From: a virus
Lineage: Duplodnaviria > Heunggongvirae > Uroviricota > Caudoviricetes
Virus record (IMG/VR): IMGVR_UViG_2703718843_000008
DNA: 17,915 bases
Strand: one strand, 5' to 3'
Part shown: positions 9,063 to 17,093 of the stretch, piece by piece
Position numbering within the stretch: the stretch's first letter is position 1
Layout: the number at the start of each line of letters is the position of its first letter
Made by a program: the position numbers and the translations under genes
The notes under the pieces: model-generated
The model's database searches: none
Told to the model about the DNA's origin: nothing
What the model saw: the letters and a program-made list of their open reading frames with translations, nothing else

Positions 9063-9231
9063 GTTCACCTCCGCAGGGAATGCGCCCGGCAAAGCTCAGT
9101 ACATAATCCGGGGCAAGTCTGCGCCGCGCTGACCGCTCGTTATCTGCGGTGATCCTTAACATCACAGGACGGGCATTGCGTTGACTGCGGTTGATCGCCG
9201 CAAATAACCAGGTACACTTCTGTTTAGCCAT
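9055..9231 (-). CDS. Small hypothetical protein (58 aa), first gene of the leftward operon
   Basis: ATG with AAGAGGT RBS; MAKQKCTWLFAAINRSQRNARPVMLRITADNERSARRRLAPDYVLSFAGRIPCGGEHA. Below the 60-aa ORF-track cutoff. Stop overlaps the next gene's start. Confidence 0.4.
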   Translation of the reverse strand: MAKQKCTWLFAAINRSQRNARPVMLRITADNERSARRRLAPDYVLSFAGRIPCGGEHA

Positions 9232-9320
9232 CTTCGTTACCTCTTATAACGGTTGGTTAAATGCCCGATTTGTGTTCCCGCACAATCGGGCATTGCTTTT
9301 ACAAGCGAACTATACTTACA

Positions 9321-12160: not shown

Positions 12161-12209
12161 TGGTGCCGATAATAGGAGTCGAACCTACGACCTTCGCATT
12201 ACGAATGCG
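12161..12209 (-). pseudogene. ptwF: Partial tRNA-Thr(CGU) gene, 3' 49 nt only (thrW-like att remnant)
   Basis: Minus strand reads CGCATTCGTAATGCGAAGGTCGTAGGTTCGACTCCTATTATCGGCACCA: anticodon stem-loop with CGT anticodon, T-arm (GGTTCGACTCC), acceptor 3' strand and CCA. No D-arm or 5' acceptor strand upstream. The symbol is my recollection of the K-12 name. Confidence 0.75.
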
Positions 12210-12318
12210 ATGTTAATGCATTTTTAACTACTTGAGCAATCAATCAAAACAACATACTTTATATTATAAAACACCAAGTTATAGCAATAAACCCGTTGAT
12301 TGAAATTAACAAAAGTTG

Positions 12319-13835: not shown

Positions 13836-14276
13836 ATGGCAACCCCAGCAACTGTATCCATAGAACCCACTCTGGCAGCTATCAGAGCTCGCTGGTGTAT
13901 TAATTCAAGTAAAACAACTCAATCCTTTAACGATCCTGCGTCCATGGAAGAGGTTGTCGAGTATCTCAAAGGAACATACTCAGCTCTTCGCAAGTCTGTC
14001 GCATGCGCCAAACTGAAAATTTTACATCTTAAACAAAGAATGCAAAATGCTACTAACTTTCTCGCGCGTCTGATGTCATGTAAAAATCAGGCATCCAGAT
14101 CGCATCACAGTACGGCTAAATCAGCTAAAAGTGCCTTATCATCAGATTCAGGTGATGGTAGTGACCCCGACCCCGAGCCCGAAACGTTTCCTTCTGCCTT
14201 CATTACTACCCCTACTAATTCAATAATGCTTAAAGCTTTCTTTGCCAATATCTCAATCACTGAGGTGGCAAAATGA
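13836..14276 (+). CDS. yagN: Hypothetical prophage protein
   Basis: 146-aa ORF, AGGAG RBS, Ser-rich acidic C-terminal region. Symbol from recollected size and context only. Confidence 0.6.
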   Translation: MATPATVSIEPTLAAIRARWCINSSKTTQSFNDPASMEEVVEYLKGTYSALRKSVACAKLKILHLKQRMQNATNFLARLMSCKNQASRSHHSTAKSAKSALSSDSGDGSDPDPEPETFPSAFITTPTNSIMLKAFFANISITEVAK

Positions 14277-15496: not shown

Positions 15497-16195
15497 ATGA
15501 GAGGTAAAATACTACTTTACCAGTTAAAGTATCGCTGGCAATCACTCTCTATTTTTGGTTGTTTTTTATGCAAAATGACATTATTCAGGTATCAAAAAAT
15601 AATTTATGACACCGGAGTGCATCAGATGCGTTCATTTTTTTACACCATATGCAGTAGCGAACAGCAAGAAAGCATTACAGATCATCACTCACTTGCTGAG
15701 ATATGCCAAAAATTTAATATTCTACCTGAACATGTTGTGATCGAGCAGGTAGATATTAAAGAGGTTGTTTCAGAGCAACGTTTACTCAGACAATTGATTC
15801 ATCATGAAATGAACCGGCAGGACACGCTTGTCATTCCAGATCTAAGCTGTCTTGGCAGAACTGTGGAGGACTTACAGAATATTTTATTTTTTTGCCTTCA
15901 AAAAGAAATGTTTATCTACAGCTACCATCCAGCTTCAAGGATAGAGCCTTCTGCTGAAAGTTGCTTGTCTTTTTTGATTGCTCGTCAGGATACGATTGAC
16001 ATTCACAATCTGAAATCAACTAAAAGCCGATATCGACATGTTAAGAAGAAATTAGGACGAAAGGAGGGAAGCAAATACCGACGTGATATCACAATACTTA
16101 AGAAAGGTGGATTTACTCAGGCTGAGATTGCAAAGAAATTGAGTATCAGTTTATCGACTGTGAAGCGGCACTGGAATAACGGAATCATCGGTTAA
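15497..16195 (+). CDS. yagL: Serine-recombinase-like protein with C-terminal HTH, probably catalytically degenerate
   Basis: Internal MRSFFYTICSSEQQ aligns with the resolvase N-terminus MRxFGYARVSTxQQ (Ser kept, the conserved Arg is Ile). C-terminal HTH GGFTQAEIAKKLSISLSTVKRHW. 232 aa. Confidence 0.65.
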   Translation: MRGKILLYQLKYRWQSLSIFGCFLCKMTLFRYQKIIYDTGVHQMRSFFYTICSSEQQESITDHHSLAEICQKFNILPEHVVIEQVDIKEVVSEQRLLRQLIHHEMNRQDTLVIPDLSCLGRTVEDLQNILFFCLQKEMFIYSYHPASRIEPSAESCLSFLIARQDTIDIHNLKSTKSRYRHVKKKLGRKEGSKYRRDITILKKGGFTQAEIAKKLSISLSTVKRHWNNGIIG

Positions 16196-16299
16196 TTCCA
16201 GAAGCTAATTGCAGAGTAACTTTTTAACAGCCATCACAGGCTGGGGCTACCTTCGTCTCAAATTTAGATGTTGGATAGGTATTATATAATGGCATTGTG

Positions 16300-16444
16300 T
16301 ACTCTTACTACCTGTATTCACCAGTAAGAGTAGTAATCAGATCAGTATGTCCGTACTAAAATCTGATACCAGTATATACCGACAACAGTGACCAGGAATA
16401 GCCCTGCCTGTATGGCATCCCTGTACGGTCTGCTATAGACCGTA
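16300..16444. repeat. Structured intergenic region with several inverted repeats and CCTGTA motifs
   Basis: 10-bp IR TACTCTTACT / AGTAAGAGTA (16300..16332); 7-bp IR ATCAGAT / ATCTGAT (16336..16367); hairpin TACGGTCT-gctat-AGACCGTA (16424..16444); CCTGTA(T/C) at 16311, 16407, 16419 and its complement at 16453. Confidence 0.4.
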
Positions 16445-16466
16445 GGACCAAATACAGGTATATATT

Positions 16467-17093
16467 ATGAAAACATATCAAGGTACTCATGGAGTACATA
16501 TCCTCGAATATCAGAGTAAGATTAATAAATTATTATGTTATTTGACTAACCGGTATCCTAGGTTAATTGCTGTACGTGTCGATCTCCACTATCCCAAAAT
16601 AGTTGATAACGGTGACAATATCTGTTGCTTCCCTAACCTGGAACCTGGGGTGATATCCCGGATGCGTGAATCCCTCAGAGCTAAGCTGGAGGCTGACCGT
16701 ACCCGTAAGGTGCGTGAGGATAAACGCATTTACCGTTGCCCTTTATTTATTATATGGGCGAAAGAGTATTCTGAATCAGGTAAATGCCACTATCACATTT
16801 GCCTGTTGTTCAACAAAGACGCTTACTACCACCTCGGGGATTACGATCAGGACGATAACCTTAGAGGGATGATCACAGGAGCCTGGTACAGCGCCCTGAG
16901 ACTGGAGAGAGACGATCACCCTGGTCTGGTCCATTTTCCTGAAAACTGTAAGTATGTGCTAGACACCAATAGTACTGACTTCCAGCAGAACTACCAGGCG
17001 CTGTTAACCCGACTGGACTACCTGACCAAAGTTGAAAGCAAAGTGTTTGGTGAAGGAGACCGTAACTTCGGCTGTAGCCAAATCGAACTGTAA
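16467..17093 (+). CDS. yagK: YagK/YfjJ-family prophage protein
   Basis: 208-aa ORF with AGGT RBS. Sequence recalls the YagK/YfjJ family found in E. coli cryptic prophages (recollection, unverified). Confidence 0.7.
   Translation: MKTYQGTHGVHILEYQSKINKLLCYLTNRYPRLIAVRVDLHYPKIVDNGDNICCFPNLEPGVISRMRESLRAKLEADRTRKVREDKRIYRCPLFIIWAKEYSESGKCHYHICLLFNKDAYYHLGDYDQDDNLRGMITGAWYSALRLERDDHPGLVHFPENCKYVLDTNSTDFQQNYQALLTRLDYLTKVESKVFGEGDRNFGCSQIEL

Follow-up and report, generated by a model that had tools for sequence, protein, structure and literature searches.

The 271-bp spacer that separates yagL from yagK (16196-16466) is best read as a cis-acting control region of yagK, not as an array of YagL sites. 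With a probability of roughly 0.5, we consider that it combines the yagK promoter with a leader that sequesters the yagK Shine-Dalgarno (SD) sequence, and that YagL may act as a modulator of this leader. Observed directly are the conservation of the spacer, its pairing potential, the strand bias of this pairing, the covariation of an anti-SD strand, the loss of catalytic residues from YagL and the folds. The window, that is, the whole 17.9-kb stretch of DNA that was analysed, corresponds to the CP4-6 island of K-12-type E. coli, and the features used below are the following.

15626-16195, + strand: yagL in the form probably used, 189 aa plus stop, a catalytically degenerate homologue of small serine recombinases
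15641-15655, + strand: remnant of the YagL active-site loop, Y6-T7-I8-C9-S10 (alignment A1), in which the Arg8 equivalent is Ile and Ser10 is not conserved in the family
15845-15859, + strand: codons for YagL S74-C75-L76-G77-R78 (A1), equivalent to resolvase D67-R68-L-G-R71 with the Asp and the first Arg lost
16061-16192, + strand: C-terminal helix-turn-helix (HTH) of YagL, located by Pfam, alignment and model; the most conserved part of the family
16206-16217, + strand: motif A, TAATTGCAGAGT, with which the conserved element begins on its upstream side; almost invariant in front of yagK/yfjJ-family genes
16230-16249, + strand: 5' strand of helix P1, GCCAUCACAGGCUGGGGCUA, a mimic of the SD region that competes for the anti-SD strand in predicted structures
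16263-16268, + strand: -35-like TTTAGA, from a promoter scan
16268-16285, + strand: motif B, TGTTGGATAGGTATTAT, found family-wide; 5' strand of helix P3, abutting the reported -10
16285-16290, + strand: -10-like TATAAT, abutting motif B
16300-16332, + strand: hairpin H1, a 10-bp stem with a 13-nt loop, which would be the 5'-terminal hairpin if the transcript starts near 16297
16336-16367, + strand: hairpin H2, with outer stem AUCAGAU/AUCUGAU and an inner 5-bp stem; 31 G.U cells in nine pairs and no A.C
16369-16380, + strand: invariant CCAGUAUAUACC, which supplies the 3' strand of P3 and could also pair with the SD-proximal GGUAUAUA (16457-16464)
16399-16416, + strand: 3' strand of P1, the core of which, CCUGUAUGG (16407-16415), is the anti-SD
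16425-16443, + strand: hairpin H4, ACGGUCU/AGACCGU; G.U/A.C 16/7
16427-16449, + strand: alternative hairpin H4', GGUCU (16427-16431) with AGGACC (16444-16449); G.U/A.C 36/1
16452-16469, + strand: SD region and start of yagK; AUACAGG (16452-16458) pairs with the anti-SD, the SD is AGG (16456-16458) and the AUG lies at 16467
16467-17093, + strand: yagK, encoding an HUH-superfamily (Rep/nickase-like) protein; the gene to which the spacer belongs

Of 5,426 complete E. coli genomes, 377 carry the spacer, with one place per genome as the median and two as the maximum, a copy number at odds with the common REP-type element that a sequence-only reading of this DNA had named as an outcome that would overturn it. 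Matches on plasmids were limited to seven conjugative E. coli plasmids with at least 99% identity, which are taken to be F-primes carrying K-12 DNA because of their laboratory K-12 sources, and the phage collection searched gave no match. Wherever the flanking DNA extends far enough, a yagK homologue stands after the spacer, and the gene in front of it is either yagL or a gene for a DUF3987 protein. Since the spacer also stands behind the DUF3987 gene in places without yagL, it belongs to yagK and not to yagL. The leader evolves 2-13 times slower than the synonymous sites of yagL, and the region spanning motifs A and B 5-90 times slower. In many Enterobacterales the module is part of islands, close to their P4-type integrase gene, and at the loci examined the order is int, alpA, DUF3987 gene or yagM/yagL, spacer and HUH gene. 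YagK itself is annotated as a member of the inovirus Gp2 family; it presents the HUH nuclease fold, and H108 and H110 (HxH) together with Y185 and K188 (YxxK) are invariant in 38 sequences. The gene is described as transcribed, within a yagJ-yagK excludon, and the literature found on yagK, yfjJ and PF11726 offered nothing mechanistic on their function.

The three inverted repeats previously noted in the 271-bp spacer were all recovered, at 16300-16309/16323-16332 (10/10 paired, loop of 13), 16336-16342/16361-16367 (with an inner 5-bp stem) and 16424-16431/16437-16444 (8/8, loop of 5), and three long-range inverted pairs were added to them (16236-16245/16402-16411, 16283-16295/16366-16378 and 16309-16318/16451-16460). 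The CCTGTA motif occurs three times on the + strand of the spacer (16311, 16407, 16420) and once on the - strand (16453). As the whole window contains nine instances versus 6.0 +/- 2.2 expected, four in 271 bp constitute a real local cluster, and to this extent the sequence-only reading was right about K-12. The four-copy pattern is, however, exclusive to the K-12 lineage, with most relatives holding zero or one copy, and CCTGTA was hence rejected as a binding-site repeat. Structure prediction places the folding of the spacer well beyond chance on both strands: the + strand folds at -82.3 kcal/mol, versus -64.3 +/- 4.6 for shuffled sequences (z -3.9), and the - strand yields a z of -2.8. All 30 distinct homologues fold far better than their shuffles (mean z -4.5 for the + strand), and the + strand is the more stable one in 24 of them. 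Among the three roles previously envisaged for the region (binding sites for YagL, a relic res or inversion site, or a structured RNA), the last is the best supported, on account of a wobble bias towards the + strand and of a covarying helix between the anti-SD and the SD.

The wobble bias is seen in one-sided changes, which favor pairing on the + strand (G.U versus A.C cells) in H2 (31/0), P3 (5/0), H4' (36/1), H4 (16/7) and P1 (75/14). G.U-type pairs are frequent, and some of them are fixed. H1 lacks such a bias (11 G.U, 15 A.C) and shows C-G/U-A exchanges at pairs 102-141 and 103-140 of alignment A2. RNAalifold returned a weak consensus for the whole spacer (covariation term -1.6) because hairpin arms and insertions differ between lineages, and helices defined by hand on the same sequence-only alignment were used in its place. 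In these helices 94.5% of cells are paired, versus 29-43% when the partners are slid. Double-sided covariation over the whole structure is weak, being observed in 5 of 64 pairs, and 215 of 500 shuffles did at least as well. Both strands of P1 and of P3 are almost invariant, and recognition of the DNA by a protein therefore fits them as well as pairing does. An additional local hairpin, H3 (16372-16400), was discarded as a family-wide element; it fits a Yersinia/Klebsiella-type lineage only, with 174 of 270 cells Watson-Crick and 33 A.C across the family.

The helix between the anti-SD and the SD region provides the strongest comparative signal. A duplex of 8-12 bp, with energies of -10 to -18 kcal/mol and ending 5-8 nt before the AUG, can be formed in all 22 distinct combinations, and the native pairings outperform permuted ones, with 0.1% of permutations reaching the native mean. 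On an anchor-based alignment, 82.7% of the cells of this helix are paired, versus 23-57% with slid partners, and its covariation score (0.226, versus 0.190 +/- 0.012) was reached by none of 500 shuffles; one of its pairs is G-C in nine sequences and A-U in four, which come from two separate lineages. A constraint-based calculation puts the cost of opening the SD at 6.4-10.3 kcal/mol, versus 3.3-4.3 kcal/mol for shuffled leaders, in five lineage representatives (p 0.016-0.08 each). The leader alone is predicted to expose the SD less than the full-length RNA does in 29 of 30 sequences. The two hallmarks looked for in an SD-sequestering leader, a conserved complement of the SD with compensatory change and an SD accessibility below that expected from composition, are thus both present in the K-12 yagK subfamily. 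As a family-wide rule, SD sequestration was rejected, since it is significant in this subfamily only (p 0.65 in the other yagK/yfjJ subfamilies), and so was long-range pairing between the A-B interval and the leader, which is significant only in the K-12 subfamily and in one yfjJ-like subfamily.

Even where the YagK proteins are only 46-57% identical, the distance between motifs A and B is either 64-66 or 74-76 nt. The invariance of the two motifs is left unexplained by RNA folding. A promoter scan upstream of yagK yielded TTTAGA-16-TATAAT, the same promoter proposed for this gene from genomic SELEX with the sigma-70 holoenzyme, an assay that reports RNA polymerase binding in vitro (PMC3946193). 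In most relatives the two hexamers are separated by 14 nt, not 16, and the K-12 promoter may therefore be a peculiarity of its lineage. Inspection of motifs A and B for a sigma-54 element or a conserved -35 produced nothing convincing, and a search for an intrinsic terminator after yagL was likewise negative, with no terminator-like site either between yagL and yagK or after any hairpin of the spacer.

YagL, the product of the gene upstream in K-12, is homologous to resolvases and invertases; its catalytic function was lost long ago, and it has been kept as an HTH nucleic-acid-binding protein. In the K-12 CP4-6 island yagL is annotated as an ORF of 232 aa (15497-16195). The true start is probably 15626 (Met44), giving a protein of 189 aa that reads MRSFFYTICSSEQQ. 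The 43 N-terminal residues added by the annotated start at 15497 lack conservation, in-frame stops occur upstream of Met44 in relatives, YagL homologues measure 189-190 aa and a GGAG precedes the Met44 codon in most relatives. The unconserved N-terminal residues and the in-frame stops suggest that the annotated 232-aa ORF needs correction. Since sequence searches against solved structures returned chance matches only, the fold had to be obtained by modelling. The AF2 model (pLDDT 73) presents the full small-serine-recombinase fold, with Tn3 and gamma-delta resolvases as top Foldseek matches (E 7e-9 to 4e-8 over ~190 columns). YagL therefore has the resolvase fold plus HTH, in a protein of ~180-200 aa, that characterizes small serine recombinases, and falls short of the curated thresholds for them. 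Pfam PF00239 scores 20.1 bits versus a cut-off of 23.3, covering profile positions 50-141 only, and the NCBIfam Mpi invertase model NF009949 matches residues 6-182 with an E of 4e-11 and 43 bits versus a cut-off of 272.

The catalytic residues were compared with those of gamma-delta resolvase, the N-terminus of which we take to be MRLFGYARVSTSQQ, with the residue numbers of the reference active site likewise assumed. In alignment A1 (14 sequences), Y6 is kept, S10 is matched by a Ser and R8 is replaced by Ile, in agreement with the resolvase-like pattern around Ser without the conserved Arg that had been described before. Resolvase D67 and R68 correspond to Ser74 and Cys75, R71 is kept as Arg78 and ~4 residues are deleted in the region of the E-helix. 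Alignment with gamma-delta resolvase thus leaves the catalytic set incomplete, and the full-length fold match bears out the assignment of YagL as a degenerate serine recombinase. Both R8 and R68 are missing in all 13 relatives, and R78 is replaced by Gly or Glu in some, so that the Arg8/Asp67/Arg68/Arg71 set is not preserved. The nucleophile position by which membership of the class is judged is occupied across the family by S, I, C, A, H, Q or K, and the Ser of K-12 YagL is therefore no evidence of retained chemistry. The N-terminal MRxFxY and the LGR motif are still recognisable. Also as expected from the sequence, the protein ends in an HTH: Pfam HTH and sigma-region-4 families match residues ~185-229 of the 232-aa form, the model places three HTH helices at 152-183 of the 189-aa form, and some species retain the HTH part alone, as a ~50-aa ORF at the same position. 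The dN/dS of yagL (0.13-0.19) indicates that the protein is retained for a non-catalytic function. In vitro, the HTH (residues 187-232 of the 232-aa form) binds RNA at micromolar concentrations, with a Kd of 3-6 uM published for YagL, and RNA-chaperone activity has been reported for YagL by the same study, which worked with the annotated 232-aa protein and calls it a 'general RNA chaperone' (PMC11587861, RNA Biol 2024); the accessible part of that report proposes no native RNA target. This is the sole experiment found on YagL, and a role as a DNA-binding regulator, as the sequence-only reading had it, is putative.

Taken together, these observations are compatible with two superimposed layers of control. 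At the DNA level, motifs A and B, helically phased, may represent a weak, probably factor-dependent promoter and an upstream protein site across the whole yagK/yfjJ family. At the RNA level, and in the K-12 yagK subfamily only, a leader of ~170 nt, whose start site and ends are predicted ones, would fold into H1, H2 and H4, and pairing of the anti-SD with AUACAGG would cover the SD, so that yagK mRNA should be poorly translatable by default. The 16230-16249 strand, which lies upstream of the -10, may capture the anti-SD strand in the 18-bp helix P1 or form instead a local hairpin (CAGCC-AUCACA-GGCUG). This strand would be carried only by transcripts that read through from the upstream gene, yagL here and the DUF3987 gene elsewhere, with or without processing of the resulting RNA, and the choice among P1, the anti-SD:SD helix and the local hairpin would then set the amount of YagK. 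Because dsRNA binding and refolding activity have been published for it (PMC11587861), YagL may bias the refolding of the leader through direct interaction. Given that the spacer is present in places without YagL, this link is the weakest step, and YagL would be dispensable for the element as such. A stronger version, in which YagL is a dedicated RNA-remodelling factor that switches the leader from a kinetically trapped, SD-sequestered state to P1 and thereby licenses an HUH nickase that cuts the same spacer as its origin, is distinctly improbable. If true, a single 271-bp element would be both RNA switch and origin, a catalytically dead serine recombinase would be serving one specific RNA, and nicking by YagK would launch replication or mobilisation of the excised island.

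The main rival to the promoter-and-leader reading, which we regard as unlikely but deserving of serious attention, is that the spacer is the origin on which YagK acts, whether double-strand, single-strand or of the oriT type. YagK would cut the + strand at or near an invariant motif, with GGTA(A/T)TAT in motif B as candidate nick site, and the hairpins would be recognised, or would prime the complementary strand, in the displaced + strand during rolling-circle replication or mobilisation. HUH enzymes usually act on hairpinned single-stranded DNA beside their own gene, a point that was counted against the leader. The structure is sense-strand-specific, a likeness that we draw with filamentous-phage intergenic regions, and motifs A and B are invariant at fixed spacing amid divergence, as protein-recognised origin elements are. 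In two subfamilies that share no sequence here, a long imperfect inverted repeat encloses motif B (p <= 0.003 each). The DUF3987 domain encoded in front of the spacer elsewhere is a predicted helicase of mobile-element replication (PMC5862659), and int/alpA islands count Gp2-like genes among their core genes (PMC12595487). Against this, the best-supported helix covers and covaries with the SD, which would be meaningless for DNA, and frequent, partly fixed G.U-type pairs suit RNA better. In the 17.9-kb window motifs A and B each occur once and iteron arrays are absent, and a stem partner for motif B conserved in every subfamily, although sought, is weakly supported (family-wide Fisher p 0.012; 2 of 15 individually significant). 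An origin would be compatible with a promoter and a leader in the same DNA.

The remaining explanations are less probable still. There is a slim chance that the repeats (ACAGGC.../...GCCTGT and GGTAT.../...ATACC) are duplex DNA operators, essentially the binding sites envisaged before, at which YagL or the AlpA-like YkgV, as a dimer or tetramer, would bind, loop the DNA and repress the yagK promoter. The near invariance, without covariation, of both arms of the long-range repeats fits this idea, as do the two A-B spacings (65 and 74-76 nt), which differ by roughly a helical turn and suggest recognition from one face of the duplex, the resolvase-type HTH of YagL, of which an HTH-only version occupies the same place in other species, and, as a loose analogy, the binding of P. 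aeruginosa AlpA between the -35 and -10 of a target promoter (PMC9371919). Duplex operators would not be expected to show one-sided substitutions that keep pairing on the + strand only, as in H2 and H4', and the same spacer occurs without yagL; moreover, H1 stems change sequence yet keep their pairing, and the repeats are separated by 75-190 bp, with intervening hairpins that differ in length. A frozen invertible promoter switch or relic res site, with 16230-16249 and 16399-16416 as former crossover sites of the YagL ancestor, is very improbable. Inverted repeats do flank the segment bearing the -10, and the neighbouring gene encodes a homologue of invertases, with the Mpi 'master DNA invertase' family as its top NCBIfam match, but of the 371 matching E. 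coli records among the 5,426 complete genomes none matches an inverted construct over 80% or more of its length, and the 30 distinct homologues, drawn from many genera, are all collinear, which disfavors the relic-site option raised from the sequence. The loss of catalytic residues across the YagL family and the presence of the spacer after a DUF3987 gene without a recombinase point the same way, and the repeat arms are accounted for by P1/anti-SD pairing. Equally remote is a trans-acting small RNA, derived by processing of, for instance, the 3' end of yagL or the leader of yagK. The strong conserved structure of the + strand and a promoter-like site would suit it, but the hairpins lack terminators, the element was never found apart from yagK and, in cis, its conserved 3' portion base-pairs with the neighbouring SD. 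An Rfam 15 scan of the whole window returned nothing in the spacer at E <= 1, and a focused scan of the spacer returned two chance-level matches (18.7 and 13.7 bits versus gathering scores of 42).

The spacer and yagK form a widespread, unstudied module that could explain how 'cryptic prophages' control a potentially dangerous nickase, and whether excised islands replicate or get mobilised. Its regulator or nick site could be sought by way of motifs A and B and the phased distance between them. For YagL, characterised so far solely as a 'general RNA chaperone', the adjoining multi-state yagK leader is a concrete candidate target, and the construct studied probably bore 43 non-native residues and may need correcting. 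Finally, the loss of catalytic residues throughout a family under purifying selection is a clean example of the re-use of a recombinase fold.

Leaders in which the SD is sequestered and upstream strands compete are known from the 'fold-back inhibition' of read-through transcripts of the IS10 transposase and from translational attenuators and operators. The yagK spacer shares with them a conserved anti-SD that pairs with the ribosome-binding site, an alternative upstream partner, a predicted outcome that depends on the 5' sequences carried by the transcript and a downstream gene for a DNA-cleaving enzyme of a mobile element. In contrast to these systems, the strand upstream of the yagK leader is predicted to release the SD instead of occluding it, and the putative leader is long and has three further conserved hairpins and no Rfam match. 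Origins of HUH/Rep systems comprise the filamentous-phage intergenic region upstream of gene II, the dso and sso of rolling-circle plasmids and the stem-loop origins of CRESS viruses. Like these, the spacer is hairpin-rich, strand-specific and directly upstream of an HUH gene, with invariant AT-rich motifs and RNA polymerase binding in vitro; unlike them, it is chromosomal, in a P4-integrase/AlpA island, its strongest comparative signal is pairing with the SD and its nick site is only putative. With small serine recombinases (Tn3/gamma-delta; Hin, Gin, Mpi), YagL shares size, the fold of the catalytic domain, the E-helix and the C-terminal HTH, and it differs from them in lacking R8, D67 and R68, in a nucleophile Ser that varies across its family, in scores below the Pfam and NCBIfam cut-offs and in a locus without inversion or res-like behaviour. 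The activity reported for it in PMC11587861 is instead RNA binding and chaperoning, and the protein described there is the same one, a resolvase-like fold that binds nucleic acid through its HTH.

Chromosomes of the E. coli K-12 type share 99.9-100% identity with the window, and the region of interest is the integrase-proximal end of the CP4-6 island, where the gene order is intF, yagN, ykgV (AlpA-like HTH), yagM, yagL, a 271-bp spacer, yagK and, on the opposite strand, yagJ. The features discussed here are the following, in window coordinates.

15497-16195, yagL as annotated
16196-16466, spacer between yagL and yagK (271 bp)
16206-16217, motif A
16268-16285, motif B
16285-16290, -10-like TATAAT, into which motif B runs

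The two small genes 3' of intF, yagN and ykgV, overlap stop-to-start as ATGA (14273-14276), which suggests that their translation may be coupled. Between a LysR-gene fragment and intF, and divergent to the latter, lies a tRNA-like sequence (12164-12237, - strand) that reaches 45.5 bits with the Rfam tRNA model and is not called by ARAGORN; its acceptor stem contains mismatches, and it probably represents a decayed tRNA copy at the attachment site of the island. The SymR antitoxin RNA model gives a weak hit within the pao gene region (9226-9297, + strand; 31.6 bits, E 0.014, the gathering score being 61) that is probably due to chance.

The three hairpins and four CCTGTA copies reported by the sequence-only reading were recovered at the same positions by repeat scanning and direct reading. 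The spacer is indeed structured (fold z-scores against shuffles of -3.9 for + and -2.8 for -) and, among the explanations offered for it (YagL-binding sites, a relic res or inversion site, a structured RNA), the last is favored. It is not a dispersed, REP-type repeat, being present in 377 of 5,426 complete E. coli genomes with a median of one copy, and it matches no Rfam family and no phage record. Relatives were gathered via YagK in one-genome-per-species contigs and via the spacer pattern in viral and metagenome contigs; 30 distinct K-12-type spacers were found in Escherichia, Mixta, Pseudocitrobacter, Citrobacter, Photorhabdus, Brenneria, Yersinia, Klebsiella, Edaphovirga, Winslowiella, Erwinia and metagenomes. 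The gene 5' of the spacer is yagL in most loci and, in several, encodes a 470-aa DUF3987 protein after an AlpA-family gene, with neither yagL nor yagM. A yagK homolog follows every copy having enough flank, and conservation begins exactly at CTAATTGCAGAGT, a few bases past whichever stop codon precedes, which together argue that the element belongs to yagK. The product of this gene falls in PF11726, with H108, H110, Y185 and K188 invariant in 38 homologs. The yagM-yagL and AlpA-family/DUF3987 gene sets appear to be interchangeable cassettes occupying one slot, the latter preceding a K-12-type spacer and yagK in L045 (5809-7619), L078 (1395-3171) and L079 (7084-8859). The AlpA-to-HUH-gene arrangement of these loci looks like a replication or mobilization module; the published prediction for DUF3987 is a mobile-element replication helicase (PMC5862659).

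Two motifs, A (TAATTGCAGAGT) and B (TGTTGGA(A/T)AGGTA(A/T)TAT), lie 5' of the gene in all retrieved yagK/yfjJ-type loci, with YagK identities down to 46%, and the sequence between and after them is wholly different between subfamilies. Measured from start to start, the two motifs are 64-66 nt apart in most loci and, in a few, 74-76 nt, a shift of about one helical turn that points to recognition on duplex DNA. Within the K-12-type subfamily, at yagL synonymous divergences of 0.6-2.2, the corresponding differences are 0.01-0.13 for the A-B region and 0.13-0.30 for the leader (the ~170 nt from motif B to the yagK start); both are strongly constrained. The best promoter-like site of the region in a promoter scan combines the TATAAT with a TTTAGA 16 bp 5' of it, and the same promoter has been proposed from genomic SELEX with the sigma-70 holoenzyme (PMC3946193). 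Further SELEX screens, with two minor sigma holoenzymes and with RcdA, also match the spacer, which the sigma-70 table marks 'HNS'; it may be a sticky AT-rich fragment in vitro. The 16-bp spacing rests on a TA insertion in the K-12 line, and the 14 bp present in most relatives argues that the yagK promoter is probably weak or factor-dependent in general. The tract at 16280-16290 reads GGTATTATATAATGG in the K-12 type and GGTATTATAATGG in most relatives, including some E. coli-like loci (L042, L052, L054), and is 5 nt longer in L031; its length (14 to 16 bp between TTTAGA and TATAAT) could tune promoter strength. In three yfjJ-like loci (L024, L015, L016), a long imperfect inverted repeat about 240 nt 5' of the gene (-38 versus -24 kcal/mol for shuffles), unrelated there to the K-12-type sequence, pairs the A-B interval with the leader and encloses motif B.

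On either strand, folding of all 30 spacers is much more stable than that of shuffles (mean z of -4.5 for + and -3.6 for -), the + strand being the more stable in 24. A structure defined by hand on a sequence-only MAFFT alignment of distinct homologs comprises two long-range helices, P1 (16230-16249/16399-16416) and P3 (16278-16292/16369-16380), the hairpins H1, H2 and H4, and a lineage-restricted extra hairpin; standard pairs occupy 94.5% of its 1,759 cells, a share that falls to 29-43% if partners are shifted by 1-3 columns. Double-sided covariation of the classical kind is modest: it is seen at 5 of 64 pairs, a count reached by 215 of 500 shuffles, with the changes lying mostly in H1, and the overall score of 0.097 (versus 0.091) is reached by 8 of 500. 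Because the 30 sequences come from related lineages, shuffle-based figures here and below overstate independence; the alignment is imperfect outside anchors. One-sided transitions reveal strand polarity, as an A.C mismatch on the + strand would be a G.U pair on the - strand. Counted on the + strand, G.U to A.C ratios are 31/0 in H2, 5/0 in P3, 16/7 in H4, 36/1 in H4' (the alternative to H4) and 75/14 in P1, H1 being strand-neutral (11 versus 15); two small hairpins 5' of the -10 follow the same trend, their variable pairs being C-G/U-G or A-U/G-U plus one G.G and one C.C cell. This large excess of G.U argues that the selected form is a single strand of sense polarity, either RNA or displaced + strand DNA, extending 5' of the -10.

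The 3' strand of P1 carries CCUGU(A/G)UGG, which is complementary to the stretch containing the yagK Shine-Dalgarno (SD) sequence in every lineage; in the window, CCUGUAU (16407-16413) pairs with AUACAGG (16452-16458), which contains the SD AGG (16456-16458), the AUG being at 16467. Across the 22 distinct combinations, the best duplex always comprises 8-12 pairs at -10 to -18 kcal/mol, with its end 5-8 nt ahead of the AUG, and native combinations average -13.7 against -12.66 +/- 0.32 when permuted, with 0.1% of permutations reaching the native value. When both segments are aligned by sequence anchors rather than by structure, 82.7% of cells are paired (23-57% when slid) and covariation is 0.226 versus 0.190 +/- 0.012, a value attained by none of 500 shuffles. 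At one pair, nine sequences have G-C and four have A-U, the latter occurring in the K-12 group and separately in L079 relative to its sister L043. In leader-only RNA, opening the SD is predicted to cost 6.4-10.3 kcal/mol, versus 3.3-4.3 when the remaining leader sequence is shuffled (p 0.016-0.08 for each of five lineage representatives), an effect absent from the other yagK subfamilies. The 5' strand of P1 (GCCAUCACAGGCU...) is similar to the SD region and pairs with that 3' strand in a much stronger helix (-36 kcal/mol over the whole interval). When the RNA is extended to begin at motif A, and so carries this 5' strand, the predicted accessibility of the SD increases in 29 of 30 spacers (mean 0.16 to 0.35). 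An invariant CCAGUAUAUACC (16369-16380) is complementary both to motif B and to GGUAUAUA beside the SD. In the K-12 lineage only, the H1 loop UACCUGUAUU (16309-16318) forms a perfect 10-nt complement of the SD region AAUACAGGUA (16451-16460), a second, lineage-specific potential SD-masking contact that accounts for two of the four CCTGTA copies.

The protein encoded upstream had been described from sequence as a resolvase-like product lacking the conserved Arg and retaining a C-terminal HTH, and alignment of 14 family members agrees: Y6 is kept, R8 is replaced by Ile and S10 is Ser, and many Pfam HTH families match the C terminus. YagL from Met44 (MRSFFYTICSSEQQ) aligns with the N termini of gamma-delta resolvase and Hin, which, with their residue numbers, served as landmarks only, and the resolvase D67-R68-L-G-R71 motif becomes S74-C75-L-G-R78. 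Homology to serine recombinases is secure despite a sub-threshold Pfam resolvase match confined to the second half of the domain (20.1 versus 23.3 bits): the NCBIfam Mpi-invertase model covers residues 6-182 (E 4e-11), a PHROG 'DNA invertase' family matches at 1e-7, and the best PDB matches of an AlphaFold model (pLDDT 73, from 19 sequences) are Tn3 and gamma-delta resolvase over the full length (E 7e-9 to 4e-8). Arg is absent from position 8 and from the R68 equivalent in all 14 aligned members, and the nucleophile position holds S, I, C, A, H, Q or K, the Ser of K-12 YagL being incidental. Together with purifying selection (dN/dS 0.13-0.19 at dS up to 2) and conservation concentrated in the C-terminal half and HTH, this family-wide loss indicates that YagL is an old, maintained, non-catalytic resolvase/invertase derivative.

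Most full-length members among 36 relatives from the database search have 189-190 aa and start at the Met44 equivalent. Because relatives from other genera carry in-frame stops upstream of this Met, which in most is preceded by GGAG, the 43-residue extension annotated in K-12 (15497-15625) is probably not real; a start at Met44 would give YagL a normal small-serine-recombinase size. The DNA of 15497-15625, the yagM-yagL spacer, is conserved even so, with a promoter-like ATGACA-17-AATAAT (15575-15603) just 5' of the GGAG and Met44. The literature search yielded a single source of functional data, a biochemical study of the 232-aa form: purified YagL binds ssRNA and dsRNA with micromolar affinity via residues 187-232 and accelerates refolding of a misfolded group I ribozyme, and the passages covered propose no native RNA target (PMC11587861). 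One group of species retains, in the position of yagL, only a ~50-aa ORF corresponding to the YagL HTH. Ten loci (L017, L019, L020, L022, L023, L038, L082-L084, L086) have it between yagM and motif A, ~200 nt 5' of their yagK, a natural counterpart of the HTH-only construct that still binds RNA (PMC11587861).

We propose, at a probability of about one half, that the spacer is a yagK control region combining a promoter region recognized as DNA with an SD-pairing leader, YagL being a candidate modulator. Motifs A and B with the -10 would form the promoter region, and the long leader would keep the yagK SD paired as one part of a three-strand switch. The releasing strand lies 5' of the -10 and so would be carried only by read-through transcripts from the upstream gene; the promoter and terminator scan placed no terminator-like site between yagL and yagK. 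YagL, no longer a recombinase, is a reasonable candidate that may modulate this switch, given its published dsRNA binding and refolding activity; the element also exists without it.

An origin or oriT on which the HUH protein YagK would act is the main rival, in our view a minority prospect. It would fit the gene context, motif invariance and specificity for the sense strand, and it does not account for the covarying SD pairing; it is compatible with the leader rather than exclusive of it. Duplex-DNA operators for YagL or YkgV are unlikely, contradicted by the strand-asymmetric substitutions. The relic inversion site of the sequence-only reading was not borne out: a frozen invertible switch is very improbable given that none of 371 matching E. 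coli records holds the spacer inverted, all homologs are collinear, the entire YagL family is inactive and some loci carry the spacer with no recombinase gene. An independent sRNA would have no terminator, and the spacer is never found apart from yagK, leaving this option scarcely credible. For the control region and its candidate modulator, YagL degeneracy and RNA binding were already partly known, and we found no earlier description of the spacer as a yagK element, of motifs A and B, of the SD-sequestering leader, or of the family-wide catalytic loss and corrected YagL start. These newly described items belong to known kinds: a pseudo-enzyme and a cis-acting leader.
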